Below are positions 30,118 to 63,478 of a stretch of DNA of 64,000 nucleotides, piece by piece (positions within the stretch are counted from its first letter, which is position 1; each line of letters starts with the position of its first letter). The stretch comes from an uncultured Candidatus Saccharibacteria bacterium (GTDB lineage Bacteria; Patescibacteriota; CALEFQ01; G965231055). Position numbers and translations under genes: made by a program. Where the stretch lies: positions 601,875-665,874 of the forward strand of contig OZ246411.1 of assembly GCA_965231055.1 (NCBI GenBank). Direction: 5' to 3'. Under the pieces are notes generated by a model, which was given only the letters and a program-made list of their open reading frames with translations, searched no databases and was not told the origin of the DNA.

Positions 30118-33105
30118 CTATTCTTCTATGATCTTTATTCCCTTTATATAAATCTGATCTTCTAAGGGACTATTTTGCTGTATCGTGAGGGTGTGTATTC
30201 CTGGATCAAGATTTGGAAGTGTGAATTCTACATCTTTTTGATTTTGGTCAATTTTTTCAAACGCAGAAAGTTCATTTAGATTAATTTGAATAGTAGATTC
30301 GTTTTGGCAATTCACCGAAAATAGTATTTTATATTTTTTGTTGGGATTTGTATTTGAGTAAATTAGTTTGATTTCTCCGACTCCTTCAATTGGAGCATAA
30401 GGATTATCTGACCCCGGAGATTCTAATCTGCCCCAGCCATCCGAGGTTATAGCCATAATACCACTATTTTGCTGGTTTAATTCAAGTATTTTATAGCTCT
30501 CATCGTCTCTTGTGATATTGCATCCGAGGTTTTTGCAGATATAATCTGAAAGAAGTTTGGTTTCCTCTGGGTAAGCTACATTTTTATCAAATACGAAATA
30601 TTTAATTCCAAGGCTTGTCAGGAGTGCCGTTTCGTTTGAATAGGCGAATTGCTTATTCAAGATGAAGTAGTCCCAATTAAGTCGCTTTTCCAGGCCTTCA
30701 TCTATAAAATACCAGTGTCTAATCATGGGATATCTCAGTGCCAGATCTTTTTTGTCATTGATAAATCCAGAAAGATCAAAAATAGAAGCATTTAGTTCTC
30801 TGAGAACTGCGTTTTCAGTGTTTGGCAGTAGTGCTTGTTTGTAGAATAATGCTTTATCATTTCGTTCTGAAAAAGTAAATTTATCACGATCAATAGATTT
30901 ATTGAAGAAGTACTTAATATCCTTTAGAACAATTGATCCATCACTTTGACCCTGTATTTCTGAATTTTTGGCAGCTAGGTCTAGTACTATTTCACTTTCT
31001 CCTTGATTAGTGAGAATTTGAGGAATTTGGACTACTATTTCTTTTTCTCCGATTTGATACTTTCCAATTTCTTGGTCGTTGTATTTGAGGGTAAATTCGC
31101 GGAAAAAATTAGTAGAATAAGGATCGTCTTTTTCTAGTCTAAATCTTAATTCAGCAGTTAGATATAAAGAAGCATTGGATGAATTTTTTATCACGATGCT
31201 TGCTTTTTCATCTGTGATTTTTTGTAAGTCTTCGTCTATTCTCTCAAATCCACCCCCTAGTCTTATATAGTTAGCGTTTTCATTGTTTGCGAATTCAGGT
31301 GTTTTATATACTGTAATATTCGGTTCTTCGTAGTAAATTTCACACCCAGTTTTTTCTAGGTAACGTTTTAATCTAGATAAATCTTTTGGTAGATTTCCAA
31401 AGTAGTCTTCGTGGACAATGATGTATCTAAGGTTCTGTTCGGCGAAAATAGCGGGGGCAATATTTGGTATATCGTGATTTACCATATCTTCAAGTCTTCC
31501 TTGTGGAATATCATAAAGTATATCTCCAAGTATCGGCATATTTTCAAGCCAAGTCCAATTGGTTTTACCCTCCCTCGCGAAGTCTCTATTGCTGATGGTT
31601 TTATGATCGTGAAAGGTGTTGTAGTAAAGAAATCTAGAGGCTGAGCTATATTTATAATTTCCTGGGATTTGGGCTATTGTAAAATCTTCATCGTCATTTG
31701 CCAAAACTTTAGAATAGAATTCGGGTACTTCCATTTTTGACATAGGAATTTGGAAGTAACCAAACTCCAAGCAAGCGACAAGTAAAACTGATACAAAGAT
31801 GGGATAATAAAATTTGGGTTTCAGTTTTTGTTTGGCAAGCGACAAGAGCAGTCCAGCGACCATTGAAAATCCCAAAATCCCCACGATAGCAAATCTCGAA
31901 ACTGTTCGGACTATATCCGCGTAAGGAATATACTGATATACGAGGAGATAGGGTAGTGGAATGAATCTAAGTTCTTGATCAATAAACTTGGCGACGGGGC
32001 CAAAAGAAAGCACGAGAAAAACGATCCCCATATAGATCCACACTCTTTGTTTGTTTTCGGTTATATGTTTTGAGAAAACAAAAAACAAAACAATGGATGC
32101 AATCATTACTATGCCCAAATAGCCCCTATAATCATCAAAAAGTTCCGGCAATGATTCAGACGCTTTTAGTGCAGTTGTAAGAGTTTTACCTAGTATTAGG
32201 CTGTATTCCGGAGCTAAAACAGGGGAAATAAGGTCGCTAGAGTATTTGATTACTTGGCTAATGCCTGGATCCAAATAGTTTTCTTCCGAGTTGGCTACCT
32301 TCAAAGAACCGACATGAAAGAGTGCGACTATTGATGCAGCTGATAGTGCTATAACAATAAACTGAGTCCACGTGCGTTTTGAAAAAAGTATTTTTTTGTT
32401 TGCGATATAATAAAGGAGAAAGAAACCGGCAATTACGAAAGCGAAATACGTAAGATGGTGTTCGGTCTTGGCAGTTACCGCAAAAACCATGATAAGCGGA
32501 ATCATTTTTTTCCACTCCATTTTTTCTAAATATCTCATCAGAAATAGAACAAAAAAAGCCAGTATTCCATAAAACATGGTGCCCCTGTGTCCGTTGTGCA
32601 GAAAATGAAAAGGAACCATTGCAAACAAAAAGGCTGTGAGGAATGCTGAAATGTGATTTTTGGTTATATAGTGCTGGAGTAAGTATCCACCAACAAAGGC
32701 GAGCAAGAAGCTTAGAAAAAACCAAATATTATACGAAAGTGCCTCGTTACCTGTCCATATCTCAAGTATCGCAAGTGAAGTTGTAGGTAAATCTTGATTC
32801 CATGCGAACTGCAAAAAGTTTTGTTCTCCGGTCAATATGGTTTTATATCTACCCAAAAATTGATAAACATCAGGATTCAAAAGTGGAAACTCACTCGTCA
32901 TTTTGCTGACAAGGGGAGTTGTAAGTAAAACAAAGAGTACTATAAAAATAGCGCATGAAATTAAAAAACCCATCCAAAATTTGATCGGTTTTTTCCCGGT
33001 TATTTTGTGAGAATCCATTTTTGTAGGACTAGTCTTTGGCTGTAACTCAGTTCGCTTGATTTGGTTTTTGAGAGAAATATCAAGTATTTTTGTGTGTGTT
33101 TTCAT
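30118..33105 (-). CDS. Large (995 aa) polytopic membrane protein with a ~550-aa C-terminal extracytoplasmic domain. Possibly a YfhO/GT-C-like glycan-modifying enzyme.
   Basis: More than 12 TM helices in the first 440 aa followed by a soluble domain. The family call rests on architecture only. Confidence 0.35.
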   Translation of the reverse strand: MKTHTKILDISLKNQIKRTELQPKTSPTKMDSHKITGKKPIKFWMGFLISCAIFIVLFVLLTTPLVSKMTSEFPLLNPDVYQFLGRYKTILTGEQNFLQFAWNQDLPTTSLAILEIWTGNEALSYNIWFFLSFLLAFVGGYLLQHYITKNHISAFLTAFLFAMVPFHFLHNGHRGTMFYGILAFFVLFLMRYLEKMEWKKMIPLIMVFAVTAKTEHHLTYFAFVIAGFFLLYYIANKKILFSKRTWTQFIVIALSAASIVALFHVGSLKVANSEENYLDPGISQVIKYSSDLISPVLAPEYSLILGKTLTTALKASESLPELFDDYRGYLGIVMIASIVLFFVFSKHITENKQRVWIYMGIVFLVLSFGPVAKFIDQELRFIPLPYLLVYQYIPYADIVRTVSRFAIVGILGFSMVAGLLLSLAKQKLKPKFYYPIFVSVLLVACLEFGYFQIPMSKMEVPEFYSKVLANDDEDFTIAQIPGNYKYSSASRFLYYNTFHDHKTISNRDFAREGKTNWTWLENMPILGDILYDIPQGRLEDMVNHDIPNIAPAIFAEQNLRYIIVHEDYFGNLPKDLSRLKRYLEKTGCEIYYEEPNITVYKTPEFANNENANYIRLGGGFERIDEDLQKITDEKASIVIKNSSNASLYLTAELRFRLEKDDPYSTNFFREFTLKYNDQEIGKYQIGEKEIVVQIPQILTNQGESEIVLDLAAKNSEIQGQSDGSIVLKDIKYFFNKSIDRDKFTFSERNDKALFYKQALLPNTENAVLRELNASIFDLSGFINDKKDLALRYPMIRHWYFIDEGLEKRLNWDYFILNKQFAYSNETALLTSLGIKYFVFDKNVAYPEETKLLSDYICKNLGCNITRDDESYKILELNQQNSGIMAITSDGWGRLESPGSDNPYAPIEGVGEIKLIYSNTNPNKKYKILFSVNCQNESTIQINLNELSAFEKIDQNQKDVEFTLPNLDPGIHTLTIQQNSPLEDQIYIKGIKIIEE

Positions 33106-33197
33106 TTTTGACAGATAGTGGTTTTTGAAGTAAAATCATAGCATAACTTTCCGCAATAATACCACAAAAACAAAGCGTTATCAAATAAACCAAGGCA

Positions 33198-34337
33198 TTG
33201 AAAATCCTTTTTTTAAATTATGAATTTCCACCTCTTGGAGGGGGAGCGGCGAACGCCACTTTGAATATTCTCAAGGAGCTAGGAAAAAGAGAGGATTTGG
33301 AAATTGATCTCGTTACTTCCTCAACTGACAAATATAAGGAAGAGCAGTTTACTCCAAATATAAAAATCTATTATTTAGACATAGGCAAAGCTGGAAATAT
33401 TCATTTTCAATCTCAGAAAGAACTTGTGAAGTACGCTTTCAAGGCTTTTAGATTTGCAAAAAAACTCAAAAAAACCAAAAACTACGATTTGGCACATGCT
33501 TTTTTTGGAGTTCCATGTGGTTTCGTTGCAATGCTTTTGAAAATCCCATATATTGCATCTCTACGAGGTACTGACGTACCTTTTTACAATGAAAGATTTA
33601 AAGTTTTGGATAAGCTGATTTTCAGGTGGCTTAATAAGAATTTTGTTTGGAAACGCGCTCAAACGGTAGTTACTAATTCAGAAGGATTAAAAAATCTAGC
33701 GCTCAGGTCTAGTCCTGGTCAGAAAATCGGTGTAATATATAACGGCGTAGACACGGGTAAATTCCATCCAGATGAAGCGATGAAAAACAAAGATTTTACC
33801 ATTCTATATAATTCTAGATTCATAGAACGCAAGGGAATCCGATATTTGATTGATGCTTTTATAAAATTCAACGGAAAGTATTCTGAATCTAGGCTTCTTA
33901 CTATTTCATCTGGAAATTTGGAAGAAGAAATGAAACAAAGGGTTAAAGAGGCGGGAATTAGTGATGCAGTGGAATTTCATGGAGCGTTAAGCCCCAAAAC
34001 CAATGAAATAGCTGAAATATACCGAAAATGTCATGTTTTTGTATTGCCTTCCTCAAATGAGGGCATGAGTAATTCACTTTTGGAGGCGCTAGCTACAGGT
34101 ATGCCCATTATCGCGACAGATACAGGCGGAACCCAGGAACTAGTGGGTAGTGATAACGGCATAATCATACCGATGCATAGCTCAAAGGCGATTTTTGAGG
34201 CGTTAGAACGACTTTATAAGGATCAAGGACGGATGAGTGATATGGGCAAAAAAAGCAGGGAAAGGGCCGAGAAAATGAGCTGGGCCACTACTGCTGAACA
34301 GTATTATCAAATTTATAAAAAGCATGAAAACTGTTAA
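33198..34337 (+). CDS. GT4-family glycosyltransferase (TTG start)
   Basis: MKILFLNYEFPPLGGGA N-terminus. The segment EGMSNSLLEALATGMPIIATDTGG contains the EX7E motif. Confidence 0.8.
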   Translation: MKILFLNYEFPPLGGGAANATLNILKELGKREDLEIDLVTSSTDKYKEEQFTPNIKIYYLDIGKAGNIHFQSQKELVKYAFKAFRFAKKLKKTKNYDLAHAFFGVPCGFVAMLLKIPYIASLRGTDVPFYNERFKVLDKLIFRWLNKNFVWKRAQTVVTNSEGLKNLALRSSPGQKIGVIYNGVDTGKFHPDEAMKNKDFTILYNSRFIERKGIRYLIDAFIKFNGKYSESRLLTISSGNLEEEMKQRVKEAGISDAVEFHGALSPKTNEIAEIYRKCHVFVLPSSNEGMSNSLLEALATGMPIIATDTGGTQELVGSDNGIIIPMHSSKAIFEALERLYKDQGRMSDMGKKSRERAEKMSWATTAEQYYQIYKKHENC

Positions 34338-35628
34338 TGAACTCATACTAAGAGTGCTTGCCAAGATTCAGAGCAGAAAGGTTTTTGAAAATCTCGATCT
34401 TATCGAGAATGTTTTTGAATCTGGCAAAGATAATATGAAAAAGTTTCAGGACGATGCCTTGAGAGAATTACTTATTCACGCATATAAAAGTGTCCCGTAT
34501 TATTCAAAAGTATTAAAAGAGTGTGGAGTGATCTCGGGGGATCTGAGCGTGAATTTGTCTAAATTTGAAAAAATTCCAGTATTAACCAAGGAGGTTATTC
34601 GTCGAGAAGGTAAAAACTTACAATCCAAAGATATTGAAAAAAGAGGTGCCTATAAAAATACTTCTGGTGGATCTACTGGTGAGCCAGTAGAGTTTTGGCA
34701 GGACAAAAATTATGATGATTGGAATAATGCAACCAAGCTATTTTATTTCAATAGGCTTTTGGGAAAAAAGATAGGGGAAAGAGAGATTAAGCTTTGGGGT
34801 TCCGATAGAGATATTATTCAGGGTAATTTAGCTTTTAAGGATAGAGTGTTAAACAAACTTTACAATCGCAAATTTTTTAATTGCTACAATTTTGGTGAAA
34901 AAGATATTAAGGAACTAATAAAACTGAATAACACATTTAAACCGGCGGCATACTGGTCTTACATGGAAGCTGCTGATGAGTTTTCGAAATATTTAATAAA
35001 AAATAACATCCAAACTCATCACCCAAGATTCATTGTTTCATCCATAGGGCCATTATATGAAAAAACGAGACAGAATATCGAACAAGCTCTTGGATGTAAA
35101 GTTTATGATCAATATGGATCTAGGGAAGTAGGTATTATTGCTGGTGAAAATCCAAAATCAGATGGAATGATGTATTTTTCGTGGTACAACAAAGTTGAAG
35201 TATCCCCTTATCCAGAGGGCAACGCTATAATTACAAATCTTAGAAATTACTCTATGCCACTAATAAGATACGATCTAGGTGATGTGGTTTTGGCAAAAGA
35301 TGAGTCGAGTCTAAAAAAAGTTATGGGAAGGACATTGGGGTACTTTAAAAAGGCTGACGGTTCTCTTGTTAGCACGCATTTTACCGTTCAGGCTCTGTTT
35401 TTTAAGGATTGGATAAAACAGTTTCAGTTGATTCAAGAAAAACTCAACGAAGTAATATTAAAAATAGAAATAAAAGAGGGGTTTGGTAAAAATGATGACG
35501 ATATGAAGGAAATTAGCGATAAAAATAAAATACTTTTTGGAAATGAGTGTGAGACAAAATTTGTTTTTGTAGATAAAATTCTTCCTTCAAAAAGCGGGAA
35601 GTACATATACACAGTATGCAAAATTTGA
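34324..35628 (+). CDS. CapK/PaaK-like adenylate-forming enzyme (phenylacetate-CoA ligase / F390 synthetase family)
   Basis: Adenylation motif YKNTSGGSTGEP. The later segment YDQYGSREVG fits the family. Confidence 0.7.
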   Translation: MKTVNELILRVLAKIQSRKVFENLDLIENVFESGKDNMKKFQDDALRELLIHAYKSVPYYSKVLKECGVISGDLSVNLSKFEKIPVLTKEVIRREGKNLQSKDIEKRGAYKNTSGGSTGEPVEFWQDKNYDDWNNATKLFYFNRLLGKKIGEREIKLWGSDRDIIQGNLAFKDRVLNKLYNRKFFNCYNFGEKDIKELIKLNNTFKPAAYWSYMEAADEFSKYLIKNNIQTHHPRFIVSSIGPLYEKTRQNIEQALGCKVYDQYGSREVGIIAGENPKSDGMMYFSWYNKVEVSPYPEGNAIITNLRNYSMPLIRYDLGDVVLAKDESSLKKVMGRTLGYFKKADGSLVSTHFTVQALFFKDWIKQFQLIQEKLNEVILKIEIKEGFGKNDDDMKEISDKNKILFGNECETKFVFVDKILPSKSGKYIYTVCKI

Positions 35629-36743
35629 AAAATATCAAAAAAAAACATATTTGTTTTATTTGTCCAAAGGCATATCCACTTTTTAATTCTAAAATTTCTT
35701 CAACTTTCGGCGGAGCAGAGGTCCAGATGAGTATGCTTGCGCGTGAACTAGCTAGGGATTCTAGTTATAAGGTCTCTATTCTGGTCGGTGATTATGGACA
35801 AAATAAACATGAAACTATCGATAATGTAATGTTGATAAAATCATTTTATTTTAAAAAAAATATATTAGCCTTTATTGCACGTGCTTTTTCTGAAATGCTT
35901 AAGGTCGGGGCCGATTGCTATATACAACGCTCAATGACAAATTATACATTCTTGCTGGCGTTGATTTGTAAGATATATAGACGTGGTTTTGTTTACATGG
36001 TAGCTCATAACAACGAAGTTGATGGTGGTAAAACAGTGAGGCGTAGTAAAATATCAACGATTTTGTCGTGGCTGGTTTTTAAAACGTCCTCGGCTGTTAT
36101 TACTCAGAATCATTATCAGCACGACAAGGTTAGTCGTGTAACGAAACGTGCATATGCTATTAAGTCAGGATACAGAATAAAAGACAATGTATTAAATCAT
36201 GATCGCAAGCATTTTTTGTGGGTTGGTAGGAGTGAAAAATGGAAACGACCAGAGGTTTTTATTACTCTTGCGAGAAAGTTTAATAAAAATAAATTTGTTA
36301 TGATATGTCCTCGTGCAACCAGAGCATCACATATCTCCGATGATGTTAAGAAACTAGCAAGCAACGTGCCCAATGTTGAGTTTCTAGATTTTGTACCTTT
36401 TGACAAAATCGGAAAATATTTCGAAGATGCGATCGCATACATAAACACCTCTACGCAAGAGGGGTTCCCAAATACGTTTATTCAGTCCATGATCGCTGGT
36501 ACTCCCATAGTTAGTTTAGCTGTAAATCCGGACAATTTTTTTGCTAAAAGCGGAGCGGGTATTTTTTGTTCTAACGAGATTTCAAAAATGATTCAAGGCG
36601 TTAAACAAGTCAGTGAATCTAAGATAATCTTTAGTAATTTCAGCGGTAATGCTAGTAAATACGCAAAAGAAAATCATGATATGTCTAAGATAATAGAGCA
36701 ATTTAAAAAAGTAATTTTAAAACATGCGATACCTTCTTCTTAA
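35616..36743 (+). CDS. GT4-like glycosyltransferase
   Basis: The segment EGFPNTFIQSMIAGTPIVS resembles the GT-B C-terminal domain. The N-terminal half resembles the acceptor domain. Confidence 0.6.
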   Translation: MQNLKNIKKKHICFICPKAYPLFNSKISSTFGGAEVQMSMLARELARDSSYKVSILVGDYGQNKHETIDNVMLIKSFYFKKNILAFIARAFSEMLKVGADCYIQRSMTNYTFLLALICKIYRRGFVYMVAHNNEVDGGKTVRRSKISTILSWLVFKTSSAVITQNHYQHDKVSRVTKRAYAIKSGYRIKDNVLNHDRKHFLWVGRSEKWKRPEVFITLARKFNKNKFVMICPRATRASHISDDVKKLASNVPNVEFLDFVPFDKIGKYFEDAIAYINTSTQEGFPNTFIQSMIAGTPIVSLAVNPDNFFAKSGAGIFCSNEISKMIQGVKQVSESKIIFSNFSGNASKYAKENHDMSKIIEQFKKVILKHAIPSS

Positions 36744-38106
36744 GCTCAGCTTGATGCTTTCAAAAAAGAACATTTTTAGAGAGTATTTGCTATTGAAAAA
36801 AATAGAACGCAATACCATAGCGGAAAACAAAAAAATTCAACAGGGCAAACTTGTTGCCTTATTGGAACATGCTTATAAATATGTTCCTTATTATCGAGAG
36901 GTTTTACCTAAGTCCGGAGTTATTGAAAAGACTAGCGATGGATCAGTGCAAGTTAATCTTGATAAATTTTCAAATATTCCAATTTTAACAAAAGCTATTA
37001 TACGAAAAAGATGGAATGATCTTTTATCCGAAGATCCAGGATTTAAAGCTCGCATGCCCTATAAAAATACATCTGGGGGATCAACCGGGGAACCAGCTGA
37101 ATTCATGAGAGATAAAACCACGTGGACTGAGGGGATGGCTGGCAAGTGGCTGTTTTTTACTTTCGGTGTAGAAAAATTTCCATGTAGGCTTTTGAAACTT
37201 TGGGGTGCGGAGCGAGATGTTTTGCTTGGGGGCATTGGTTTCTCTGCAAAATTTAAAAACTGGCTTTATAATAGAAAGATTCTTAATACTTTTAAAATGT
37301 CTGAGTCCGACATGGAAAAATATACTGAGACTATTAATAAGTATAAACCAAAAATCATAGAAGCTTACGCACAATCAATTTATGAATTTTCACTATATAT
37401 CATTAAGCATCAGTATCATTTAAGTAAACCCACAGCTATTTTTACTTCAGTGGGGACGCTCACTGATCAGATGCGAAATGTTATTGAAAAAGCATTTGGA
37501 TGTAGGGTTTATAATCGATATGGTTCCAGAGAAGTGGGCGACATGGCATGTAGCTGCAAAACTAGCACTGAATTACATGCAAATATTATTCACTATTTCA
37601 TAGAGGTTCTGGATGAGAATAAGTTAAAAGTGAAGCCAGGTAATACTGGTGATATCTATGTAACTTCATTGAATAATTATTCAATGCCATTAATAAGATA
37701 TGAAATAGGGGATATGGCAATGATTGCCAAGCAAGAATCGTGTAGTTGCGGGTCGGGTTTTCCACTGCTAGGCAGTGTGATTGGAAGAGTGGGGTCGATG
37801 ATCACAACAAAAAACGGTACACTTGATGGTATTGCTGTTAGTACTTTGTTGTATTATTATAAAGATCATGTGCCCTTTAGTTCATTTATGCGCTATCAAT
37901 TAATTCAAGAAAGAAAAGATCTAGTTATACTTAAGATCGCAGTTGATAATCAGAAAAAATGGTTATACGAAAAGCCACGCGTAATAGAAAAATTTTCAAA
38001 GGCACTTGGAGATGGCGTGCGATTTGAAATAGAAGAGGTAGAAAAAATAGAGCCGCTCAAAAATGGAAAATTTATCTATATTATAAATAAAACATTAAAA
38101 AAATAA
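36724..38106 (+). CDS. Second CapK/PaaK-like adenylate-forming enzyme (paralogue of 34324-35628)
   Basis: YKNTSGGSTGEPAEF, YNRYGSREVG, YSMPLIRYEIGD. All three are shared with the upstream paralogue. Confidence 0.7.
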   Translation: MRYLLLKLSLMLSKKNIFREYLLLKKIERNTIAENKKIQQGKLVALLEHAYKYVPYYREVLPKSGVIEKTSDGSVQVNLDKFSNIPILTKAIIRKRWNDLLSEDPGFKARMPYKNTSGGSTGEPAEFMRDKTTWTEGMAGKWLFFTFGVEKFPCRLLKLWGAERDVLLGGIGFSAKFKNWLYNRKILNTFKMSESDMEKYTETINKYKPKIIEAYAQSIYEFSLYIIKHQYHLSKPTAIFTSVGTLTDQMRNVIEKAFGCRVYNRYGSREVGDMACSCKTSTELHANIIHYFIEVLDENKLKVKPGNTGDIYVTSLNNYSMPLIRYEIGDMAMIAKQESCSCGSGFPLLGSVIGRVGSMITTKNGTLDGIAVSTLLYYYKDHVPFSSFMRYQLIQERKDLVILKIAVDNQKKWLYEKPRVIEKFSKALGDGVRFEIEEVEKIEPLKNGKFIYIINKTLKK

Positions 38107-38107
38107 A

Positions 38108-38773
38108 ATGGAAAATACAGATTTACAACGCAATATAGAAAAAATGGGCAAGGAGAGATTTGAAAAAATCGGTCACGAATATTATGGTGACAAATGCGCT
38201 AGGGTTTTGGCATCAATTACTAAGCATTTTATTAAAAACGACATACTTGATTGCGGCGCCGGTACTGGTGCATTGATGTTGGAACTTAAACGACGGGGTT
38301 ATACAAATATTAATGGCATAGATCTTTATCCAAAAGTAGATTTTGTGCAGCAAGGTGATATTACTAATTTAAAATTCGCAAACGCTAGTTTGAACACGGT
38401 GTTTTTTATGGAGGTCATGGAGCATCTTACTGATGAACAGATATTAAAAACGCTTAGTGAGTCATCAAGGGTACTTAGAAAGGGAGGCCACCTAATTATT
38501 ACTACGCCTTTTAGTGAGCAGCTACTAGAGAATACAATAAAATGCCCGTTTTGCGAGCAGTCATTTCATCGTTATGGACATCTTAGAACTTTTGACAAAA
38601 AAGTAGCGATTGCTACTTTTGAAAAATATGGCTTTAAAACTAAATTTTTTGGAGTTTATGCTCTTGGCGCAATGTCAAAGCTACCTATGGGAAGATACCT
38701 TAATTGGTTTTTTAAGAAATTAAAGTACAAATCTATTTCACAAAGCCTAGTTTTGGTTTTAAGTAAGACCTAA
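38108..38773 (+). CDS. Class I SAM-dependent methyltransferase with a C-terminal CxxC...H Zn-ribbon-like element
   Basis: Motif I ILDCGAGTG, acidic motif II GIDLYP. C-terminal CPFCEQSFHRYGH. Confidence 0.7.
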   Translation: MENTDLQRNIEKMGKERFEKIGHEYYGDKCARVLASITKHFIKNDILDCGAGTGALMLELKRRGYTNINGIDLYPKVDFVQQGDITNLKFANASLNTVFFMEVMEHLTDEQILKTLSESSRVLRKGGHLIITTPFSEQLLENTIKCPFCEQSFHRYGHLRTFDKKVAIATFEKYGFKTKFFGVYALGAMSKLPMGRYLNWFFKKLKYKSISQSLVLVLSKT

Positions 38774-39995: not shown

Positions 39996-40074
39996 ATTTT
40001 TCGTTAAAAATTGAATGATTGTTAATGATTTTATGAAACAGGATTAATCTCAATAGTAAACAATCATTCGTGGG

Positions 40075-44824: not shown

Positions 44825-44827
44825 TCA

Positions 44828-53896: not shown

Positions 53897-53993
53897 ATTC
53901 GGTTTTTAGCTAAAATCAAAGCTTTGCCATTTGACAATTTCGGTTTGATTATATCCTAAAATCAGATATAATTACAACTGAATTTCATATTAC

Positions 53994-56356: not shown

Positions 56357-57231
56357 TCAAGTTATCAATAATCATCGTCACGTGGAATTCAGAAGAATAC
56401 ATCAAAAACTGCCTTGATGCTGTTTCTTCATCCAAGACCGATTTTGAATACGAAATAATAGTCATAGACAATAATTCATCAGATAGCACTTCAAAGATTG
56501 TCGCGTCTTCGGAATATCAAGATAAATTACATTTCATACAAAATAGTTCAAATTTAGGATTTGCTACCGCAAATAATCAAGGCATAAAAATAGCTAAAGG
56601 AGAATTTATTCTACTTCTGAATCCCGATACTCGCGTAACTGAAAACGCCATAAGTGAATTGGTTAATTGTTTTAGTACCAATAAGGAAATAGGAATAGTG
56701 GGAGGCAAGCTTCTAAACGAAGATGGTTCCTTTCAAAAAGGTACAGCTCGCAGATTTCCGAAGCTATTTGATTTTTGGATTATATTGTCAGGACTAGCTC
56801 GATTTGCAGAAAAAAAATCAAAGCGTTTTAGAGATTATATGATGTTAGCCGATGATTTTTCCAATGAAATGGAAGTAGATCAGATAATGGGCGCTAATTT
56901 GGTGTTTAAAAAATCTATCTTGAGAAAAGTTGAAGTTTTGGATGAAAAATTTCTACTCTGGTTTGAAGAGGTTGATTTTTGCAAAAGAGCAAAAGATGCC
57001 GGATACAAAATAGTTTATACTCCAAAATCAGTTATAACACATATCCAAGGACCAAGTTTCGCAAAAACTCCAAAACTAAAAAAGTTTTTTATTCTTTCAC
57101 ATAGTATTTTTAGATATTCGTGGAAACATTTGCCAAAAAGCACATTGCTCTTACTTTCACTTGCTTGGATATTGGGATTATTAGTTTCAACTTTTGTTGC
57201 TATTTTTAAAATACCAAATGAAAAATCTTGA
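56353..57231 (+). CDS. GT2-family glycosyltransferase
   Basis: IIIVTWNSEEYI...IIVIDNNSSDST and the DxD motif in NPDTR. Confidence 0.8.
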   Translation: MIKLSIIIVTWNSEEYIKNCLDAVSSSKTDFEYEIIVIDNNSSDSTSKIVASSEYQDKLHFIQNSSNLGFATANNQGIKIAKGEFILLLNPDTRVTENAISELVNCFSTNKEIGIVGGKLLNEDGSFQKGTARRFPKLFDFWIILSGLARFAEKKSKRFRDYMMLADDFSNEMEVDQIMGANLVFKKSILRKVEVLDEKFLLWFEEVDFCKRAKDAGYKIVYTPKSVITHIQGPSFAKTPKLKKFFILSHSIFRYSWKHLPKSTLLLLSLAWILGLLVSTFVAIFKIPNEKS

Positions 57232-58441
57232 AAAAGTATTTTTTTCAATAATTCTTGTTGCATTCGTTTTTATAGCGACCGCTTTTGCATATTTCAATAA
57301 AGATTTTAGAGCCCCAGATGAACGGTTTCACCTTGCTTATATAGACCTAATTATTCGAGATAGTCAGCTTCCAAAACTAATAGACATAAAAGATATCTCA
57401 GAAGCACATCAGCCACCGGCATACTATCTGGCACTTACACCAATTCGAATTTTTAATCATTTTGATAACAGTCATCTCGCAGTTTTTACCATAAGGATGT
57501 GCTCCATAATATTCGGAACACTAACGCTCCTTGTCGCCTGGAAAGCAGTTAGGCTTTTCATAGAAAGTAGGGTGCTGCAGGTTTTGGCAATAGGAAGTAT
57601 TGCTTTTTTGCCCATGTTCATTCACATAAGCTCAAGCATAAACAACGACGCCCTAGCAAATTTAGTAGGAGCAATCATGGCGCTTCTCACCATCAGGCTT
57701 ATAAAAAAACCTTTTTCGTTTAACACCTATTTATCTACGGCCCTAATAATCTCACTCGCACTCATAACAAAAACCACGCTTTATCCATTTGCACTAGCTT
57801 TGTTTTTTATCGCTATTATAAAATGGGTCAAAGAAATACAAAAATACAAAGGCGAAAAAACCAAAAGCTACATGATAACTACGCTGATAATCTTTCTACT
57901 CATAGTCATGCTGATAGCGGGGTGGTGGTTTGCGAGAAACTTTTCTATTTATGGCGAACCCTTCGGCCATAAATACACCAAAGATTTATGGTATGACATA
58001 CAAAACCGAGATTTGTTCACAAAACCAAATCTACTCATGTGGGGTCAAAAAACTTATGACAGTTTTTTTGGAGTATTCGGATACATGAACATATCCATGA
58101 ATCCTATAATTTACAAAATACTAAGATATATAGGTGTTTTTGTGTTTGCAATATATGTAATTTCATTATTTAAGAAGAGCAAGGACAAGGAAAATGCCAA
58201 AATCAATATAGTTTTTCTTATTACCACACTTATCACCCTTGGATTGATCTTTCAAAACAGTATCAATTTCTATCAGCCACAAGGACGATATCTATTTATT
58301 TGCCTAGTCCCAATAGTTTTAATTGTTGCGATGAGCATGCAGAAAATTTTACCCAAAAAATTCAATCTAGCTTTCACGATATTTTATCTTGTATTTATGT
58401 TTATGGTATCAATTCATTCTCTAATGCTAATTTCCTCATGA
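57194..58441 (+). CDS. GT-C membrane glycosyltransferase (PMT_2/ArnT-like); an alternative start at ATG 57218 is possible
   Basis: First-loop acidic motif APDERFH and the HQPPAYYL motif (similar to HPPLxY), as in the GT39/GT83 families. Confidence 0.55.
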   Translation: MLLFLKYQMKNLEKVFFSIILVAFVFIATAFAYFNKDFRAPDERFHLAYIDLIIRDSQLPKLIDIKDISEAHQPPAYYLALTPIRIFNHFDNSHLAVFTIRMCSIIFGTLTLLVAWKAVRLFIESRVLQVLAIGSIAFLPMFIHISSSINNDALANLVGAIMALLTIRLIKKPFSFNTYLSTALIISLALITKTTLYPFALALFFIAIIKWVKEIQKYKGEKTKSYMITTLIIFLLIVMLIAGWWFARNFSIYGEPFGHKYTKDLWYDIQNRDLFTKPNLLMWGQKTYDSFFGVFGYMNISMNPIIYKILRYIGVFVFAIYVISLFKKSKDKENAKINIVFLITTLITLGLIFQNSINFYQPQGRYLFICLVPIVLIVAMSMQKILPKKFNLAFTIFYLVFMFMVSIHSLMLISS

Positions 58442-60054
58442 AGCATCAAGATACTCTAATTTATACATGCATTTTTGCTTTTACATTTTTATCTAGGCTT
58501 ATATCAAAAAGCCAATTTCTTTTTAATTGGGATGCGGTGCAATTTGCACTGGCTACTGAAAAATTTCAAATAAGCGCACATCAACCTCATCCACCAGGAT
58601 ATATTTTCTATGTTTTTATACCAAAACTAATAGATTTTATAGTAGGCGATGTAAATCTAAGTTTCATAATATTGAATGCGATAGCGTCAGCGCTAACCGC
58701 ATGTATTGTTTTTTTATTTCTCAAAAAAATAACGAAAAATTATTCGGTAAGTATTGTGGGATCCATCGCACTAGCTACGATTCCGCTTTTTTGGTTTTAT
58801 GGAGAGATCGCAAATGCGTATGTTTTTGATGCTCTTTTTGCGTGTCTTTTGGGATTTCTCGCGTATATAATTATAAAAGGAGATTATACAAAAATACTGT
58901 GGCTATTGCTTTTTTGGGGAATAGCCGGAGGATTTAGACCCACATTAATAGTTGTTTTTGCTCCTATAGTTGTTTTTGCGCTAATAATCGTCCTACTAAA
59001 TAAGAAGTATAAACTAGCACTCCTCTCTGTTGTAATTGCGATAATTGCTACCACAGCATGGTTTTTGCCTACTATAATGCTTAGTGGGGGAATAAAAAGC
59101 TATATCGCTGACACTGCGGCACTTATGAAGCTTTCATCGTCTTCAACCTCAATTCTCGATGGCGCTCCCACATCTGAACTAATAAATAACATAAAAACAA
59201 TCGTCTCAGTACTTTTTACTTATTTGTTCTGGCTTTTTATCCCCGTACTATTTGTAGCTATCTTGGGACGAGGCAAATTTTTGCAACGAAACACAGAAAC
59301 CTCAATCTTTATTTTGTTATGGATTTTACCATCTTTTGCAATCTATACTTTGGGACATCTGGGCCAGATAGGATACTTATTGACACTACTACATCCATTG
59401 GCTATTTGCTTTATTTGGTTCATGGCAAATGTAAAAGCGAAAAAATTATTAGTGATACTGCTTTTAATTATGACTTTTTCGAACGCATATGTTTTTTATA
59501 AAAGCGATTTTATTATCGAGGGCTTGTCAAAAATATTTCCAAAGATAGCAAGTAGCGAGGCCGTTTATTCTATAAAATACTGGAACAATAGATTTGGTCA
59601 CAAAGAGATACTTTCAAAAGATAAATTTATTGAAGCTAATATAAACTTTGTATTAGCGAACTACAATCCAGAAGACACGGTTATCATCACGAGATGGGGT
59701 AGGACAGACGATGAAGAAGCAAAACAAAGAAATGAACAAGACTTTGATCCGCTAGATTTTCGTATCGCATCATATTATTTTCCTGAATACGAAGTTTATC
59801 AAATAAGAAGTGATAATAAACCCGCTTATTTGCATTCTCGAAATCACGATCCTATATCAAAAGCCACCAACTCATTTAAAATCAACTTAAACTCAAAAAT
59901 CAAGAATTTAATCTTTTTTGACAATGGAATTGATTCAAACACGAAAAAAGACTACAATTTTATGGTTAAAGAGTTAATAGGCAGGCAATCAATATTTATA
60001 ACCCAAAATATACCTGCAAAATATCTCGGTTATAGCATTGGTGTAAAACATTAA
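58438..60054 (+). CDS. GT-C membrane glycosyltransferase (PMT_2/ArnT-like), paralogue of the preceding gene (corrected start, ATGA overlap)
   Basis: NWDAVQF acidic loop and the HQPHPPGYIFY motif. 538 aa polytopic protein. Confidence 0.5.
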   Translation: MKHQDTLIYTCIFAFTFLSRLISKSQFLFNWDAVQFALATEKFQISAHQPHPPGYIFYVFIPKLIDFIVGDVNLSFIILNAIASALTACIVFLFLKKITKNYSVSIVGSIALATIPLFWFYGEIANAYVFDALFACLLGFLAYIIIKGDYTKILWLLLFWGIAGGFRPTLIVVFAPIVVFALIIVLLNKKYKLALLSVVIAIIATTAWFLPTIMLSGGIKSYIADTAALMKLSSSSTSILDGAPTSELINNIKTIVSVLFTYLFWLFIPVLFVAILGRGKFLQRNTETSIFILLWILPSFAIYTLGHLGQIGYLLTLLHPLAICFIWFMANVKAKKLLVILLLIMTFSNAYVFYKSDFIIEGLSKIFPKIASSEAVYSIKYWNNRFGHKEILSKDKFIEANINFVLANYNPEDTVIITRWGRTDDEEAKQRNEQDFDPLDFRIASYYFPEYEVYQIRSDNKPAYLHSRNHDPISKATNSFKINLNSKIKNLIFFDNGIDSNTKKDYNFMVKELIGRQSIFITQNIPAKYLGYSIGVKH

Positions 60055-60058
60055 AAAA

Positions 60059-61597
60059 TTGGAAAAAACAATACTCACAACCACAATTCTGACACTGATT
60101 TTGTTGCTGATATCATTTTTCAGTTATTTTTCATTTACTCTTAATATTATTTTGTTTGTAGGATTACTCGTGGGATTTATTCTCATTACAAACAAATCAT
60201 TACCCACGGGACTAGCTATTATCTTTGCCGAATTGGCTTTTGGAGGAGATGGATATATTTTTCTGTTGCCAGTTAAAAGCATTGCTATCTCGCTTCGCAT
60301 AGCAATATTTATAGCTTTTATCGTTATTTGGCTTATTAAGAAGCCAAAATTAGAATTTTTCAAATCCAAAATCAAATATCCTGCAATAGTATTCGCATTA
60401 TTCTTTTTTGCATCTATTATTATCAGCATGCAAAAAGGGATTTCAAATAGCGTGATCTATGCAGATGCAAACGGTTATTTATATTGGCTATTGTTAATAC
60501 CTATAATAGATACCATTAAAGCCAAAAGTTTTGATTTTAAAAAAATGCTCAGGCCAATACTTGGCACAACACTCGCTATATCCATACTAACCTCTGCACT
60601 TGGTATCAGTTTTTATTTTTTTCAAAAAGAGCATCCCGATTTTAATTCAATTATTGCATCTAGCATAAGCTCATCAACAGAATCACCTGAATTTTCTCAA
60701 ACCACTCTCGCTTACAAAAATAAATATTTTCAAAGAGAAGAGCTAAGTTTTAGTAAAAAAATATATAGGTGGGGCAAGGACAGGGGAGTATTTGATATTT
60801 CATATGTCGGTGGAAACTTTTTTAGAGTTTATGGCAAATCTCAAGTATTTAATCTACTGGCGATATTGATTTGCATATTGCTAGTAGCCAATGATTATAA
60901 AACAAAAACACTTAAGAATCATTTATTTTATTTTACGTTAATAGCATTAAATGCACTTTGTCTATTTTGCGGATTTTCTAGGAGTCTAATGATTGGACTG
61001 TTTGTGGCTCTCTTGGCACTGGCTTTTATCAAGATTCCTAAAATAAAAATGAAGATTGTTTTTGCGACTATCATGGTCATTGCCTGCGCACTGGTTTTAT
61101 TTCTAGCAAGCTACACGACCAATGATTCGGTTATATTAAGTAGGGTTAGATCAATCATTAACCCATCCGAAGAATACGCATCATCAACCAGGCTAAACAT
61201 GCTAACCCCAATAATTAGTGGAATAAAAAATAACCCACTCATAGGTAATGGATTTGGCTCAACTTTTGTATTTTTTAGTAACGCACCCGAAAACTATGGG
61301 ATGGTTGAAAAATATATGACGGAATGGGGATATTTAGATATCATGTATGATATTGGTGTCTTGGGAATTGCGTCCTATATTGCACTAGTTTTCGTACTGC
61401 TCAAAGACGCAAAAATAGTATTTATGCGAAATAAAGAGATTTTCATATTCTCTACATGTTCTATACTAGCTTTATTAGTGGTTAATATAACCACTCCGTA
61501 TTTAAATCATCCACTGGGTATATCTATGATATTTATTTCAGCAATTCCGTTTATGCAAGAGTCGTTAAATCAAAACAATGCAAGAAAATACGCCTAA
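60059..61597 (+). CDS. O-antigen ligase/polymerase-family (Wzy_C-like) membrane protein
   Basis: About 12 TM helices with a large loop and the conserved segment NPLIGNGFGS near the C-terminus. Confidence 0.5.
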   Translation: MEKTILTTTILTLILLLISFFSYFSFTLNIILFVGLLVGFILITNKSLPTGLAIIFAELAFGGDGYIFLLPVKSIAISLRIAIFIAFIVIWLIKKPKLEFFKSKIKYPAIVFALFFFASIIISMQKGISNSVIYADANGYLYWLLLIPIIDTIKAKSFDFKKMLRPILGTTLAISILTSALGISFYFFQKEHPDFNSIIASSISSSTESPEFSQTTLAYKNKYFQREELSFSKKIYRWGKDRGVFDISYVGGNFFRVYGKSQVFNLLAILICILLVANDYKTKTLKNHLFYFTLIALNALCLFCGFSRSLMIGLFVALLALAFIKIPKIKMKIVFATIMVIACALVLFLASYTTNDSVILSRVRSIINPSEEYASSTRLNMLTPIISGIKNNPLIGNGFGSTFVFFSNAPENYGMVEKYMTEWGYLDIMYDIGVLGIASYIALVFVLLKDAKIVFMRNKEIFIFSTCSILALLVVNITTPYLNHPLGISMIFISAIPFMQESLNQNNARKYA

Positions 61598-62588
61598 AGT
61601 AACAATCAGTTTATTGCTCCATAATTCCGAAAAGCATATCGGCAAAACTTTGGATTATCTAAAAAATCAGACTTATAAAAATTACGAGTTGATAGTCCTT
61701 GATAATGCCTCAACAGATAATTCTGTAAAAGTTTTGAAAAAATATTTTCCGAACTGCACTATTATATCCAAGTCTATAAATGTAGGTTTTGCCCAAGGAA
61801 ATAACGAAATAATAAAAGATTCAAATTCACCCTATATCTTACTACTCAATGACGATGTTTTTTTGAGAAGCAATTATCTAGAAAAATTAGTGGAGCTAAT
61901 GGAAAATAATCTTCAAATTGGTTCTGCTTCTGGTTTTCTATATCGAGCAGAGGGCTCAAGGGAGACTAGCGTAGCTGATGGCGTAGAATTATTGCCACAT
62001 AAAAATCTCAGATTCACCACAAAAAATGAGGGCGAAAACGCGATAAAAATAGAAAAATCACCGTTTGAGGTTTGGGGCGTGAGTGCACCCGCTGCTATTT
62101 ACAGAACCAGCGCACTTCAAGACGTCGCGCTAGGTGAACAAGATTTTTTTGATAGCGATTTCTTTATCTACAAAGAAGATGTGGATTTAGCATGGCGACT
62201 AAGAAACATGGGATGGGAATCTTTTGTTGATCCTACGGCTGTGGGATATCACGATAGAGGACTACGCGGTAGCGCAAACGCAAATGACTTGATTAACGCT
62301 AAAATGCACTACAAAAGAGGATATAATCAAAATTATTTTTCACTACGAAATCACATATTGCTTCGATATAAAAACCTATCGTTAACTCTTAGAAAAAGAT
62401 ATTTCTTCCATATTTATTGGTTTGAAATCAGAAAACTCTTTTTTTACATGATATTTAAGCCAAGCGTGCTGAAGGCGTTTTTTGATGCGAGAAAGATGAA
62501 ACCAAAGATGCTTGAAAAACACAAGAAAATGAGGCAAAATACTACTAGCACATCAGTTGAATCATTAGACAAATGGATCAAGGACTAG
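61578..62588 (+). CDS. GT2-family glycosyltransferase
   Basis: VTISLLLHNSEKHI...ELIVLDNASTDNS and the DxD motif in LNDDVF. Confidence 0.8.
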   Translation: MQENTPKVTISLLLHNSEKHIGKTLDYLKNQTYKNYELIVLDNASTDNSVKVLKKYFPNCTIISKSINVGFAQGNNEIIKDSNSPYILLLNDDVFLRSNYLEKLVELMENNLQIGSASGFLYRAEGSRETSVADGVELLPHKNLRFTTKNEGENAIKIEKSPFEVWGVSAPAAIYRTSALQDVALGEQDFFDSDFFIYKEDVDLAWRLRNMGWESFVDPTAVGYHDRGLRGSANANDLINAKMHYKRGYNQNYFSLRNHILLRYKNLSLTLRKRYFFHIYWFEIRKLFFYMIFKPSVLKAFFDARKMKPKMLEKHKKMRQNTTSTSVESLDKWIKD

Positions 62589-63478
62589 ACAATAAAAATC
62601 TTCCAGTAAACCTCATACTAGTAAACTATGGGGATCAAACTTCAATGGCAATCCAATGCCTTGATTCAGTTTTCAAATTTCACCCAGAACTAAAATCAAA
62701 AACAATAATCATAGACAACAATTCCAGGAACAATGGCGCCAAGCAGCTAAAGCAAAGATACCCCGAAGCTAGAGTTATCCCTTCAAAGAAAAATCTAGGA
62801 CTCGGAATAGCGATCAATTGGGGAGTTTATAATGCAAGCGAAAAATATTTACTGTATTTAAATAATGATATTCTGATAAAAAATAATACCACCATCCCTG
62901 AAATGGCTAGATACTTGGAAGAAAATAATGAGGTTGCACTTCTTGGACCAAAACTAATAAACAAAGATGGCTCAATCCAATACTCATGTAGAAAATTTCC
63001 TACCATAAGATTTATAATATATAGACGAACAGTATTTGGTGAATCATATTTTGCCAAAAAATATATGAACAACCTAATGATGACAGATTTTGATCACGAA
63101 TCTGTGAAGGAAGTGGACTGGATTTTTGGAGCTGCAATGATGATTAGAACCAAAGCTATACACGACATAGGCATGATGGATGAAAGATTCTTTCTTTATT
63201 TCGAAGATGTTGACCTATGCCGAAGATTTTGGGAGGGGGGATACAAAGTCGTATATTATCCCAAAGTAAGCATGATACACTATCACCAGCGAGAAAGCGC
63301 TGTGGCTACCGGATTATTCAATTCTCTTTCAAACAAATTAACCAGAATACATATCCGTAGTGGACTAAAATACTTTTTCAAATACAGTAGGTCAGATAGA
63401 GATATTAGAACATCGACATTGCAGGCAATAAGAGCGAGAAAACATGAGCTGGAACAACTTAAACACCAAAAACTATAA
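62573..63478 (+). CDS. GT2-family glycosyltransferase
   Basis: NLILVNYGDQ...TIIIDNNSRNNG and the DxD motif in NNDIL. Confidence 0.75.
   Translation: MDQGLDNKNLPVNLILVNYGDQTSMAIQCLDSVFKFHPELKSKTIIIDNNSRNNGAKQLKQRYPEARVIPSKKNLGLGIAINWGVYNASEKYLLYLNNDILIKNNTTIPEMARYLEENNEVALLGPKLINKDGSIQYSCRKFPTIRFIIYRRTVFGESYFAKKYMNNLMMTDFDHESVKEVDWIFGAAMMIRTKAIHDIGMMDERFFLYFEDVDLCRRFWEGGYKVVYYPKVSMIHYHQRESAVATGLFNSLSNKLTRIHIRSGLKYFFKYSRSDRDIRTSTLQAIRARKHELEQLKHQKL

Follow-up and report, generated by a model that had tools for sequence, protein, structure and literature searches.

Which glycan is made by a long run of glycosyltransferase (GT) genes in an uncultured Candidatus Saccharibacteria bacterium, and where is it placed? 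The question is raised by a stretch of 64,000 nucleotides of contig OZ246411.1 (positions 601,875 to 665,874; hereafter the window), in which a locus for glycan assembly occupies positions 30118-63478. The Patescibacteria, or Candidate Phyla Radiation (CPR), are a large, mostly uncultivated and host-attached group, the surface chemistry of which is essentially unknown. About 4% of a genome of about 0.85 Mb is given to this single glycan region, which suggests that its product matters for envelope integrity or for contact with the host. The answer that we consider probable is that of a chromosomal cell-surface glycan biosynthesis region made of cassettes, and its product is most likely a wall-associated, probably anionic polysaccharide.

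The locus and its division into modules

All 25 open reading frames (ORFs) of the locus were scanned with the Pfam and NCBIfam hidden Markov models (HMMs). The 25 genes, named below by their lower coordinate, form an unbroken run, and about 22 of them have a glycan-related family assignment, which, judged from these sequence families, is far more than chance would give. The locus extends past position 63478 into a gene for a DUF4012 protein of 651 aa, and comes to about 35 kb in all. The GC content lies between 32 and 40% and does not change abruptly at the locus, and a 110-kb contig from a sibling sample carries the same sequence with 100% identity. The first 30 kb of the window contain genes for aminoacyl-tRNA synthetases, an FtsQ-like protein, RecR, DnaB, Dus, CysS, DnaX, tRNA-Gln and L21; the upstream flank of the locus is of the housekeeping type and includes HtrA, and its 3' flank, according to gene and Pfam calls on a longer contig, encodes an S41 peptidase, L9, L27, IscS and NifU. 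As housekeeping genes are present on both flanks, the region is chromosomal.

When the assignments were compared with an initial annotation made from the letters of the sequence, most of its census was retained, and part of it had to be reduced. At least eight GT-B enzymes had been counted, of which only 33198, 35616, 49330, 53994 and 55130 passed, with 46264 as a probable, sub-threshold case; 34324 and 36724, probably included in that count, are PaaK/CapK-like ligases and not glycosyltransferases. The GT2 enzymes come to four in total (50412, 56353, 61578 and 62573), the DPM1-like synthase, which had been counted in addition, being one of the four. The four GT-C membrane enzymes were recovered as such and are not unrelated transporters, 40075, 57194 and 58438 being recognised by Pfam PMT_2 and 47598 by HMM hits of its family members, by hhalign and by AlphaFold. 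The HMM scans also agreed with the three MOP flippases (38733, 44828 and 52439), the O-antigen-ligase/polymerase-like protein 60059 and two nucleotide-sugar enzymes, the dehydrogenase 43523 and the short-chain dehydrogenase/reductase (SDR) epimerase 51435. To that list we add the methyltransferase 38108, a probable fifth GT-C (30118) and the DUF4012 gene from position 63478.

For the comparative analysis, the ORFs of 19 related loci, designated here by an L number, were matched to the window proteins by local BLASTP, and precomputed Pfam contexts were also used. The locus can be divided into four modules, A to D, of which A, C and D are each kept independently in other genomes. The recovery of separately conserved cassettes supports the existence of several lipid-linked intermediates. 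In scans for promoters and terminators, matches were no commoner than in shuffled sequence, and the few good ones in the divergent gaps 33108-33184, 51361-51419 and 53945-53977 fit the proposed transcription units by position only.

An explanation of the locus as a known housekeeping pathway, i.e. wall teichoic acid, Arn-type lipid modification or peptidoglycan synthesis, would suit the retention of module C across many Kerfeldbacteria-like genomes and a weak NCBIfam likeness to TuaB/TuaD/TuaG and ArnC. However, TagF/TagD/TagGH/LCP, ArnA/ArnB/ArnD and Mur genes were not found in the locus, the specific models all scored below their cut-offs and the GT-C family of 47598 is without any curated model, and we regard this explanation as very improbable. 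Of its variants, teichoic acid synthesis, which the initial annotation had named as a possible known function, was rejected because no TagF-type polymerase, TagGH ABC exporter or LCP ligase turned up among the scanned ORFs of the window, which were 100 aa or longer, and the Arn pathway because no formyltransferase, aminotransferase or deformylase families were found in the locus.

A conserved GT2-GT4-GT-C trio in module C

The genes of module C (47598-52388) are for an SDR epimerase, a GT2 synthase, a GT4 and a GT-C whose family is unclassified. The GT2 protein 50412 (50412-51365, minus strand; Glycos_transf_2, E = 6.5e-21) is predicted to be a polyprenyl-phosphate sugar synthase of the DPM1/GtrB/ArnC/AglJ type. 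It has two C-terminal transmembrane (TM) helices, matches the dolichyl-phosphate mannose synthase (DPMS) structure 5mlz in the PDB (E = 5e-12) and aligns over its full length with ArnC (9hwj), in line with its earlier description as a DPM1/ArnC-like hexose synthase. Its best NCBIfam models are AglJ (118 bits) and a dolichyl-phosphate (Dol-P)-hexose transferase, both below their cut-offs. The gene is followed by that of the GT4 (GT-B) enzyme 49330 (49330-50412, minus strand; Glycos_transf_1, E = 1.9e-34) and then by 47598 (47598-49343, minus strand), the product of which has 581 aa.

The protein 47598 itself had no match in Pfam, in NCBIfam or among PDB sequences, and the profile of its family gave noise only against PDB sequences; direct searches of the latter with 40075, 47598, 30118, 58300 and 60059 returned nothing useful. 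A word-indexed homologue search with 47598 found only two proteins, and in an exhaustive HMMER search of 1.84 billion representatives no more than 54 clusters (at 50% identity) were recovered, so rare is the family. All of its 33 aligned members have D39, which falls within a G-D-D-S-x-G-Y consensus immediately behind TM helix 1, and the motif WINPYxRY is likewise conserved. Pfam PMT_2 is matched by 13 of these 33 members (best E = 1.5e-10), and the family profile aligns by hhalign with the GT39-like profile of 40075 over 378 columns (probability 94.9%, E = 4e-8). The AlphaFold model (pLDDT 84, pTM 0.89) and hydropathy agree on a topology of about 10-12 helices plus a C-terminal alpha/beta domain of about 120 aa. 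In Foldseek searches, the best 30 PDB matches of this model were all GT-C enzymes (STT3/AglB/PglB, ArnT, ALG12, DPY19, Pmt4, AftA and Emb), and the target-normalised TM-scores to ArnT and ALG12 (0.55-0.61) were equal to or above those to the oligosaccharyltransferases (OSTs). By its profiles and its predicted fold, 47598 is thus a divergent branch of the GT-C enzymes without a curated model. A role as a strict OST was rejected, as it has no WWDYG motif and its C-terminal domain is small.

The putative use of a polyprenyl-phosphate donor by 47598 is suggested by gene adjacency. When related loci were searched for in GTDB representatives with an alignment of seven sequences, 13 loci with members of the 47598 family were found, 11 of them in Patescibacteria, mostly Candidatus Kerfeldbacteria, and the remaining two on short contigs binned as Gammaproteobacteria. 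In nine Patescibacteria loci, a 50412-type GT2 (51-61% identity) lies upstream of the 47598-type GT-C, and in six of the relatives (L007, L010, L011, L012, L013 and L018) a 49330-type GT4 (34-45%) directly follows the GT2, the order GT2-GT4-GT-C of L012 being that of the window. On the 5' side of the relatives' cassettes, an SDR epimerase and a sugar dehydrogenase are often found, and sometimes a GtrA-like gene, which in L007, L011 and L012 is located upstream at a distance of at most 10 kb. The window also has a GtrA-family small membrane protein, as first annotated (20892-21347, plus strand; GtrA_DPMS_TM, E = 1.6e-24), which is 27-30 kb from the GT2/GT-C pair and is a candidate for a polyprenyl-phosphate-sugar flippase working in trans.

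Several relatives differ from the window in having ORFs of about 383, about 335 and sometimes about 465 aa between the GT4 and the 47598-type GT-C (L007:7165-9328, L008:3743-7481, L010:7077-9263, L011:7175-9330 and L018:5771-9306). Those scanned, in L007 and L008, were an ATP sulfurylase, a DHH/DHHA1 phosphoesterase and an alkaline-phosphatase-superfamily protein (Phosphodiest). A sulfotransferase, of which the window has no counterpart, follows the GT-C/flippase pair of L020 (L020:5641-6555), and the sulfurylase and sulfotransferase neighbours together hint at sulfated surface glycans in these CPR relatives. On the 3' side, a 251-aa CDP-alcohol phosphatidyltransferase, absent from the window, follows the GT-C of L007 (11648-12403), and an ORF of about 255 aa that of L012 (L012:11715-12482); the 47598-type GT-C of L011 is itself 810 aa long (9932-12364). 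A fusion or operon link between 47598-type GT-C enzymes and a phospho-alcohol transferase is possible.

Module A and a probable fifth GT-C

Five genes of module A (33198-42594), for a GT4, a ligase, a second GT4, a second ligase and a methyltransferase, run towards those of a MOP flippase and a GT39-like GT-C. The first gene, on the plus strand like the next four, encodes a GT4 (GT-B) enzyme (33198-34337; Glycos_transf_1, E = 3e-33, and Glyco_transf_4), followed by a PaaK/CapK-like adenylate-forming ligase (34324-35628; PF27533 CapK_C in precomputed tables), for which matches to the PaaK, F390-synthetase and DVU_1553-family models of NCBIfam were all below the cut-offs. A further GT4 (GT-B) enzyme (35616-36743; Glyco_trans_1_4, E = 5e-12, and Glycos_transf_1, E = 2.6e-11) precedes the second ligase of this type (36724-38106; CapK_C precomputed and NCBIfam), which is a paralogue of 34324 (38% identical) and resembles phenylacetate-CoA ligase structures (9s3l, E = 4.8e-22). 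Then comes an S-adenosylmethionine-dependent methyltransferase (38108-38773; Methyltransf_23/11/25, E about 1e-13). The ligases and the neighbouring methyltransferase also weakly match NF045666/NF045667, models for the DVU_1553 ligase family and the DVU_1556 methyltransferase family that are named after adjacent genes of Desulfovibrio vulgaris; on this sequence likeness, the pairing of ligase and methyltransferase may recur in other organisms.

On the opposite strand are the MOP-superfamily flippase 38733 (38733-39995; Polysacc_synt, E = 1.6e-20) and the GT39/PMT_2-like GT-C 40075 (40075-42594; 839 aa; PMT_2, E = 4.9e-9, 37.0 bits). Homologues of 40075 numbered 210 at E <= 0.001, most of them covering only residues 260-839 or so; Patescibacteria account for most of the named ones, next to single sequences from Dehalococcoidia and Nanoarchaeia. 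Homologues of this protein carry the annotation GT39. The Asp-Glu pair D283-E284 is invariant in 50 of the homologues. The AlphaFold model is confident for residues 255-839, its top Foldseek matches in the PDB are all GT-C enzymes, and 40075 weakly matches the NCBIfam model Agl23. Fused to the GT39-like core is an N-terminal extension (residues 1-260; 41815-42594, minus strand) with about nine TM helices, no Pfam match and low AlphaFold confidence, common to just one further protein (P0004) among the homologues listed.

In each of five further genomes (L020-L024), a homologue of 40075 (38-41%) adjoins at least one module-A partner. A 33198-type GT4 (49-59%) is beside the 40075-like genes of L021 and L022 and, in L019, beside a 30118-like gene; L022 also has a CapK-like ligase orthologous to 34324 (46% identical), module A of L023 and L024 includes methyltransferases, and L021 and L022 carry a GT2 of 313-315 aa, the best window match of which is 50412. 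Directly 3' of the 40075 homologue there is a MOP flippase (30-36% to 38733) in L020 and L021, and an LPG_synthase_TM protein (MprF-flippase-like) is encoded beside the GT-C on the opposite strand in L022 (8177-8905) and L024 (8391-9353). Judged from the gene neighbourhoods, this looks like a non-orthologous displacement at the flippase position, which ties the flippase 38733 to the GT-C 40075.

The same exchange, together with the recurrence of GT2-GT4-GT-C trios without a phosphoglycosyltransferase and the CDP-alcohol phosphatidyltransferase following the GT-C of L007, could speak for a membrane lipoglycan such as the actinobacterial phosphatidylinositol mannosides, lipomannan and lipoarabinomannan. 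The GT4 enzymes would then glycosylate a membrane lipid at its cytoplasmic side, the MOP proteins would flip the product, and the GT-C enzymes would extend it outside with donors made by 50412; in mycobacteria, one synthase serves many GT-C enzymes. We nevertheless judge this proposal to be rather improbable, as no lipid-head-group enzyme was found in the window, the GT4 proteins match generic models only, and a module of Wzy_C, Wzx and DUF4012 is more typical of polysaccharides made of repeat units.

Between the housekeeping genes and module A lies 30118 (30118-33105, minus strand), a membrane protein of 995 aa that by hydropathy has about 11 TM helices and an extracytoplasmic C-terminal domain of about 545 aa. 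It was labelled PF19830 DUF6311 in precomputed tables, an assignment not reproduced by hmmscan, even at E <= 1, with the whole protein or its halves. Its homologue search returned only two sequences; the two-sequence profile matched that of the 47598 family in hhalign (probability 93.4% over about 100 columns) and gave no match to the GT39-like profile. On this profile likeness, 30118 is a probable fifth GT-C. Its neighbour 28715 (28715-30031, plus strand), a secreted or membrane-anchored protein of 438 aa with one N-terminal hydrophobic segment and no Pfam family in hmmscan, is a possible accessory of 30118, and the pair is kept in L019, where homologues of 28715 (56% identical) and 30118 (39%) are again neighbours.

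Module B and the sugar-nucleotide enzymes

Module B (43523-47634) runs from a UDP-N-acetylhexosamine (HexNAc)-type 6-dehydrogenase through a MOP flippase to a divergent GT-B, and is preceded by a gene for a 197-aa protein (42823-43416, minus strand) with one N-terminal TM segment and no family in Pfam or NCBIfam. The nucleoside diphosphate (NDP)-sugar 6-dehydrogenase 43523 (43523-44824, plus strand) has three UDPG_MGDP_dh domains and scores 421 bits with TIGR03026. The best specific models were UDP-ManNAc dehydrogenase (297 bits) and TviB (224 bits), both below their cut-offs, and its sequence would place it closest to the UDP-ManNAc/UDP-GlcNAc dehydrogenases. The SDR protein 51435 of module C (51435-52388, plus strand; Epimerase, E = 1.6e-58) is an NDP-sugar 4-epimerase/dehydratase, with scores of 191 bits for GalE, 188 for RmlB and 156 for TviC, again below the cut-offs. 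A dehydrogenase nearest to the UDP-ManNAc/GlcNAc type and a partly TviC-like epimerase together point to a HexNAc-uronic acid.

The flippase of this module (44828-46306, plus strand; Polysacc_synt_3, E = 1.5e-27) gave weak NCBIfam matches to MOP, HfsF and O-glycosylation Wzx models. The last gene (46264-47634, plus strand; start at 46303 according to the gene caller) encodes a probable divergent GT-B with sub-threshold matches to Glyco_transf_4 in its N-terminal half and to Glycos_transf_1 in its C-terminal half (E about 3e-4 each), in the correct order.

Module D and the question of the acceptor

Module D (from 52439 to beyond 63478) has the order Wzx, GT4, GT4, GT2, two PMT_2 GT-C enzymes, Wzy_C, GT2, GT2 and DUF4012. 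The MOP/Wzx-type flippase 52439 (52439-53896, minus strand; Polysacc_synt, E = 1.8e-24) is followed on the plus strand by a GT4 (GT-B) enzyme (53994-55136; Glycos_transf_1, E = 3.7e-45), a GT4-like GT-B enzyme (55130-56356; Glyco_trans_1_4, E = 1.1e-9, and Glyco_trans_1_2) and a GT2 enzyme (56353-57231; Glycos_transf_2, E = 1.7e-26). The gathering score of PMT_2 (26.1 bits) is exceeded by 40075 and by both GT-C proteins of this module. The first of these (57194-58441, plus strand; 407-415 aa; PMT_2, 31.2 bits) has D42-E43 after its first TM helix and a weak match to the LA_3751/3752 family; the second, a PMT_2/TMEM260-like protein (58300-60054, plus strand, with a likely start at 58438 giving 538 aa; PMT_2, 28.4 bits, and TMEM260-like, 27.8 bits), has one Asp only (D78) in the loop that matches the Asp-Glu motif. 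HMM scans gave no MIR domain in 40075, 57194 or 58438, which are therefore PMT_2-type GT-C enzymes and not canonical protein mannosyltransferases (PMTs).

The next gene encodes a Wzy_C-family membrane protein with about 11 TM helices (60059-61597, plus strand; Wzy_C, E = 5e-13), with neither an NCBIfam nor a PDB match to narrow the assignment. Two GT2 enzymes (61578-62588; Glycos_transf_2, E = 3.1e-25; and 62573-63478; Glycos_transf_2, E = 4.8e-15; both plus strand) lead to the DUF4012 gene, the true right end of the locus according to a Pfam call on the longer contig, of which the window holds the 5' part (63478-64000, plus strand) before the reading frame leaves it. DUF4012 is enriched in CPR and present in a Bifidobacterium cluster for capsular and exopolysaccharides (CPS/EPS; PMC6744442).

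In L013, the order 55130-56353-60059-61578-62573-DUF4012 is kept, with identities of 37, 43, 30, 36, 44 and 29%, respectively, and a 52439-type flippase (32%, E = 6.5e-85) is near the module. Between its homologues of 56353 and 60059, this sole syntenic relative has neither of the PMT_2 genes 57194 and 58438, which, from this comparison, may be an insertion in the lineage of the window. Beside its flippase, L013 encodes on the minus strand (12473-14989) a protein of 838 aa in which an FrhB/FdhB-like 4Fe-4S domain is joined to a polysaccharide pyruvyl transferase; these domains suggest that this relative makes a pyruvylated glycan.

With flippase 52439 travelling with the Wzy module in L013, and 38733 travelling with the GT-C 40075, the earlier proposal of more than one product is strengthened. 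The MOP flippases may serve GT-C enzymes instead of marking separate Wzy-type polymers.

These enzymes also raise the question of whether the acceptor could be a protein, as the initial annotation had considered. If surface proteins such as pilins or those of an S-layer were generally O-glycosylated, 60059 would act as an O-oligosaccharyltransferase of the PglL/PilO type that passes a flipped lipid-linked oligosaccharide to proteins, and the PMT_2/TMEM260-like GT-C enzymes would add single sugars to Ser/Thr in the manner of actinobacterial and eukaryotic PMTs. Such a function would be compatible with the PMT_2 and TMEM260-like HMM matches, with the DE motif in 40075 and 57194, with the weak match of flippase 44828 to the O-glycosylation Wzx model and with the presence of OSTs among the best structural matches of 47598; the Wzy_C family, moreover, includes O-oligosaccharyltransferases. 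Positive evidence was not obtained, however: besides the lack of MIR domains, WWD[YWF]G or similar motifs are absent from the five GT-C candidates and from 60059, and the window has no Ser/Thr-rich or otherwise obvious acceptor protein. PMT_2 also takes in enzymes directed to lipids and glycans, such as ArnT, the TM-scores of 47598 to ArnT/ALG12 match or beat those to OSTs, and DUF4012 and the uronic-acid enzymes suit polysaccharide loci. Protein glycosylation is not supported by these results, and we consider it unlikely as the general function of the locus.

A proposed pathway for a wall-associated glycan

From the family and fold assignments and from the conservation of the cassettes, we infer donors, order of steps, acceptor and product for the preferred explanation, a wall-associated polysaccharide. 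On the cytoplasmic side, polyprenyl phosphate would be primed either by a distant WecA-like enzyme (5951) or by the GT2 50412, and soluble GT4 and GT2 enzymes would then build up short glycans on it. The dehydrogenase and the epimerase would probably supply a HexNAc-uronic acid. Candidates for modifying the glycans, by amidation or acylation and by methylation, are the two adenylate-forming ligases together with the methyltransferase. MOP or GtrA proteins would flip the intermediates, and the Wzy_C protein would polymerise or ligate the unit made by module D. Outside, the four or five GT-C enzymes would draw on polyprenyl-phosphate donors that 50412 makes, and would pass single sugars or short glycans on to an extracytoplasmic acceptor. 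This is most likely an anionic polysaccharide associated with the wall, comparable to teichuronic acid or to the decorated rhamnan of streptococci. A scheme of GT-A synthase, flippase and GT-C is established for streptococcal wall polysaccharide (PMC11754754). The explanation is also favoured by the invariant acidic residues that follow TM helix 1 of the GT-C core in 47598 and 40075.

The initial annotation had read both a Wzx/Wzy-type pathway and polyprenyl-phosphate-dependent transfer from the locus. At the family level both sets of parts are present, the first as flippase 52439, the GT4/GT2 enzymes and Wzy_C 60059, and the second as the GT2 synthase 50412, GtrA in trans and four to five GT-C enzymes; an initiating enzyme within the locus and a Wzz are missing from the first. 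The sole candidate initiating enzyme in the window is 5951 (5951-7066, plus strand; Glycos_transf_4, E = 2.5e-26), 24 kb upstream of the locus, a polyprenyl-phosphate HexNAc-1-P transferase of the WecA/MraY family. First annotated as MraY/WecA-like, it is WecA-like rather than MraY-like, with 95 bits for the WecA model and 60 for MraY, both below their cut-offs.

Several points weigh against this pathway. HMM scans found no initiating phosphoglycosyltransferase (Bac_transf or Glycos_transf_4) within 30118-63478, and no Wzz-type polysaccharide co-polymerase (PCP), LCP ligase or ABC exporter in the locus. One polyprenyl-phosphate-sugar synthase would have to serve four or five GT-C enzymes, and 60059 could be a polymerase, a ligase or an O-oligosaccharyltransferase, as the Wzy_C family spans all three. 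Nearly all of the specific NCBIfam models score under their own cut-offs, which makes the sugar identities guesses. The weakest part of the scheme is the extracytoplasmic acceptor.

Four features depart from the textbook, namely the lack of an initiating phosphoglycosyltransferase and of Wzz in the locus, the single synthase for four or five GT-C enzymes, the GT4 kept between synthase and GT-C in two paralogous cassettes and the pairing of MOP flippases with a GT-C. They leave room for the assembly of oligosaccharides on polyprenyl monophosphate, as in the AglJ-primed glycans of Haloferax. In a CPR-wide pathway of this kind, an AglJ/DPM1-like GT2 would prime, GT4 enzymes would extend, and the novel GT-C enzymes would transfer the modified oligosaccharides en bloc to surface proteins or to the wall. 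We hold such a pathway to be a long shot; if it were true, it would be a bacterial counterpart of the haloarchaeal Dol-P-based glycosylation, using the 47598-type GT-C.

Other genes of the window

Among the housekeeping genes upstream, 16459-18948 (plus strand) encodes an 829-aa VirD4/TraG/TrwB-like coupling ATPase, which is flanked by ORFs without a family (15455-16438 and 19023-20009) and could belong to a type IV secretion system or to a machinery resembling those of DNA uptake. Just 5' of HtrA, the region 24360-27503 (plus strand) encodes a signal-anchored protein of 437 aa, a right-handed beta-helix protein of 354 aa and a polytopic membrane protein with DUF5656; the three may be located at the surface or bind glycans, and no link between them and the locus was made. 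DUF5656 and DUF4012 are both CPR-enriched families; taken with the distribution of the 47598 family, the names of the 40075 homologues and synteny, they point very probably to a host in Patescibacteria/CPR, putatively near Kerfeldbacteria-like lineages.

Comparison with known systems

We found no paper on GT-C-rich glycan loci in Patescibacteria/CPR, and the comparison was made with four characterised systems. The first is that of the three-component extracytoplasmic systems of Gram-positive wall polymers, i.e. SccN/SccM and SccP/SccQ of Streptococcus mutans, GacI/GacL of Streptococcus pyogenes and the Gtr type (PMC11754754). As in these, a polysaccharide locus, taken with its surroundings, combines a GT2 synthase that ends in TM helices (50412) with a small flippase of the GtrA type, or another flippase, and with GT-C enzymes that face outward. 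Unlike them, the window has one synthase for four to five GT-C enzymes, a GT4 kept between synthase and GT-C, a GtrA gene 27-30 kb away and MOP flippases paired with GT-C enzymes; its GT-C families are only remotely related to characterised ones, and there is no rhamnan/ABC-transporter pathway for a backbone.

With the tua operon of Bacillus subtilis and Wzx/Wzy CPS/EPS loci, the locus shares a Wzx-type flippase, a Wzy_C protein, GT4/GT2 enzymes and a 6-dehydrogenase that yields a uronic acid, and weak NCBIfam matches to TuaB, TuaD and TuaG, far below the equivalog cut-offs, go in the same direction. In contrast to tua, it is without a TuaA-type initiating transferase or a Wzz-like protein, has DUF4012 instead, and has two GT-C genes in the middle of the module.

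In the Agl N-glycosylation system of Haloferax volcanii, AglJ primes on dolichyl monophosphate, and soluble GTs, a flippase and the GT-C enzymes AglS/AglB follow. AglJ is the best specific model of 50412, the next gene is for a soluble GT, GT-C enzymes come after it, no diphosphate-forming initiating enzyme is present in the locus and 40075 weakly matches Agl23. The differences are the bacterial host, scores far below the cut-offs and the lack of an AglB/STT3-type WWDYG motif.

The ArnC/ArnT pathway of lipid A modification resembles the locus in the full-length alignment of 50412 to ArnC, in the target-normalised TM-scores (0.55-0.57) of the 47598 model to ArnT (5f15/5ezm), and in having a sugar dehydrogenase and an SDR enzyme close by. 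The locus is, however, without the ArnA formyltransferase, the ArnB aminotransferase, ArnD and ArnE/F, its dehydrogenase resembles HexNAc dehydrogenases and not Ugd, and its gene context gives no sign of lipid A.

The locus thus offers concrete units for testing in the GT2-GT4-GT-C trio, the cassette of GT4, CapK-like ligase, flippase and GT39-like enzyme, and the Wzx/Wzy/DUF4012 module. Its parts and its logic are those of known lipid-linked glycan pathways and hold little surprise for the specialist; what is new with respect to these systems is the CPR setting, a GT-C family, so far unclassified, that belongs to a strongly conserved trio, and the GT39-like enzyme with its extension of about nine TM helices.

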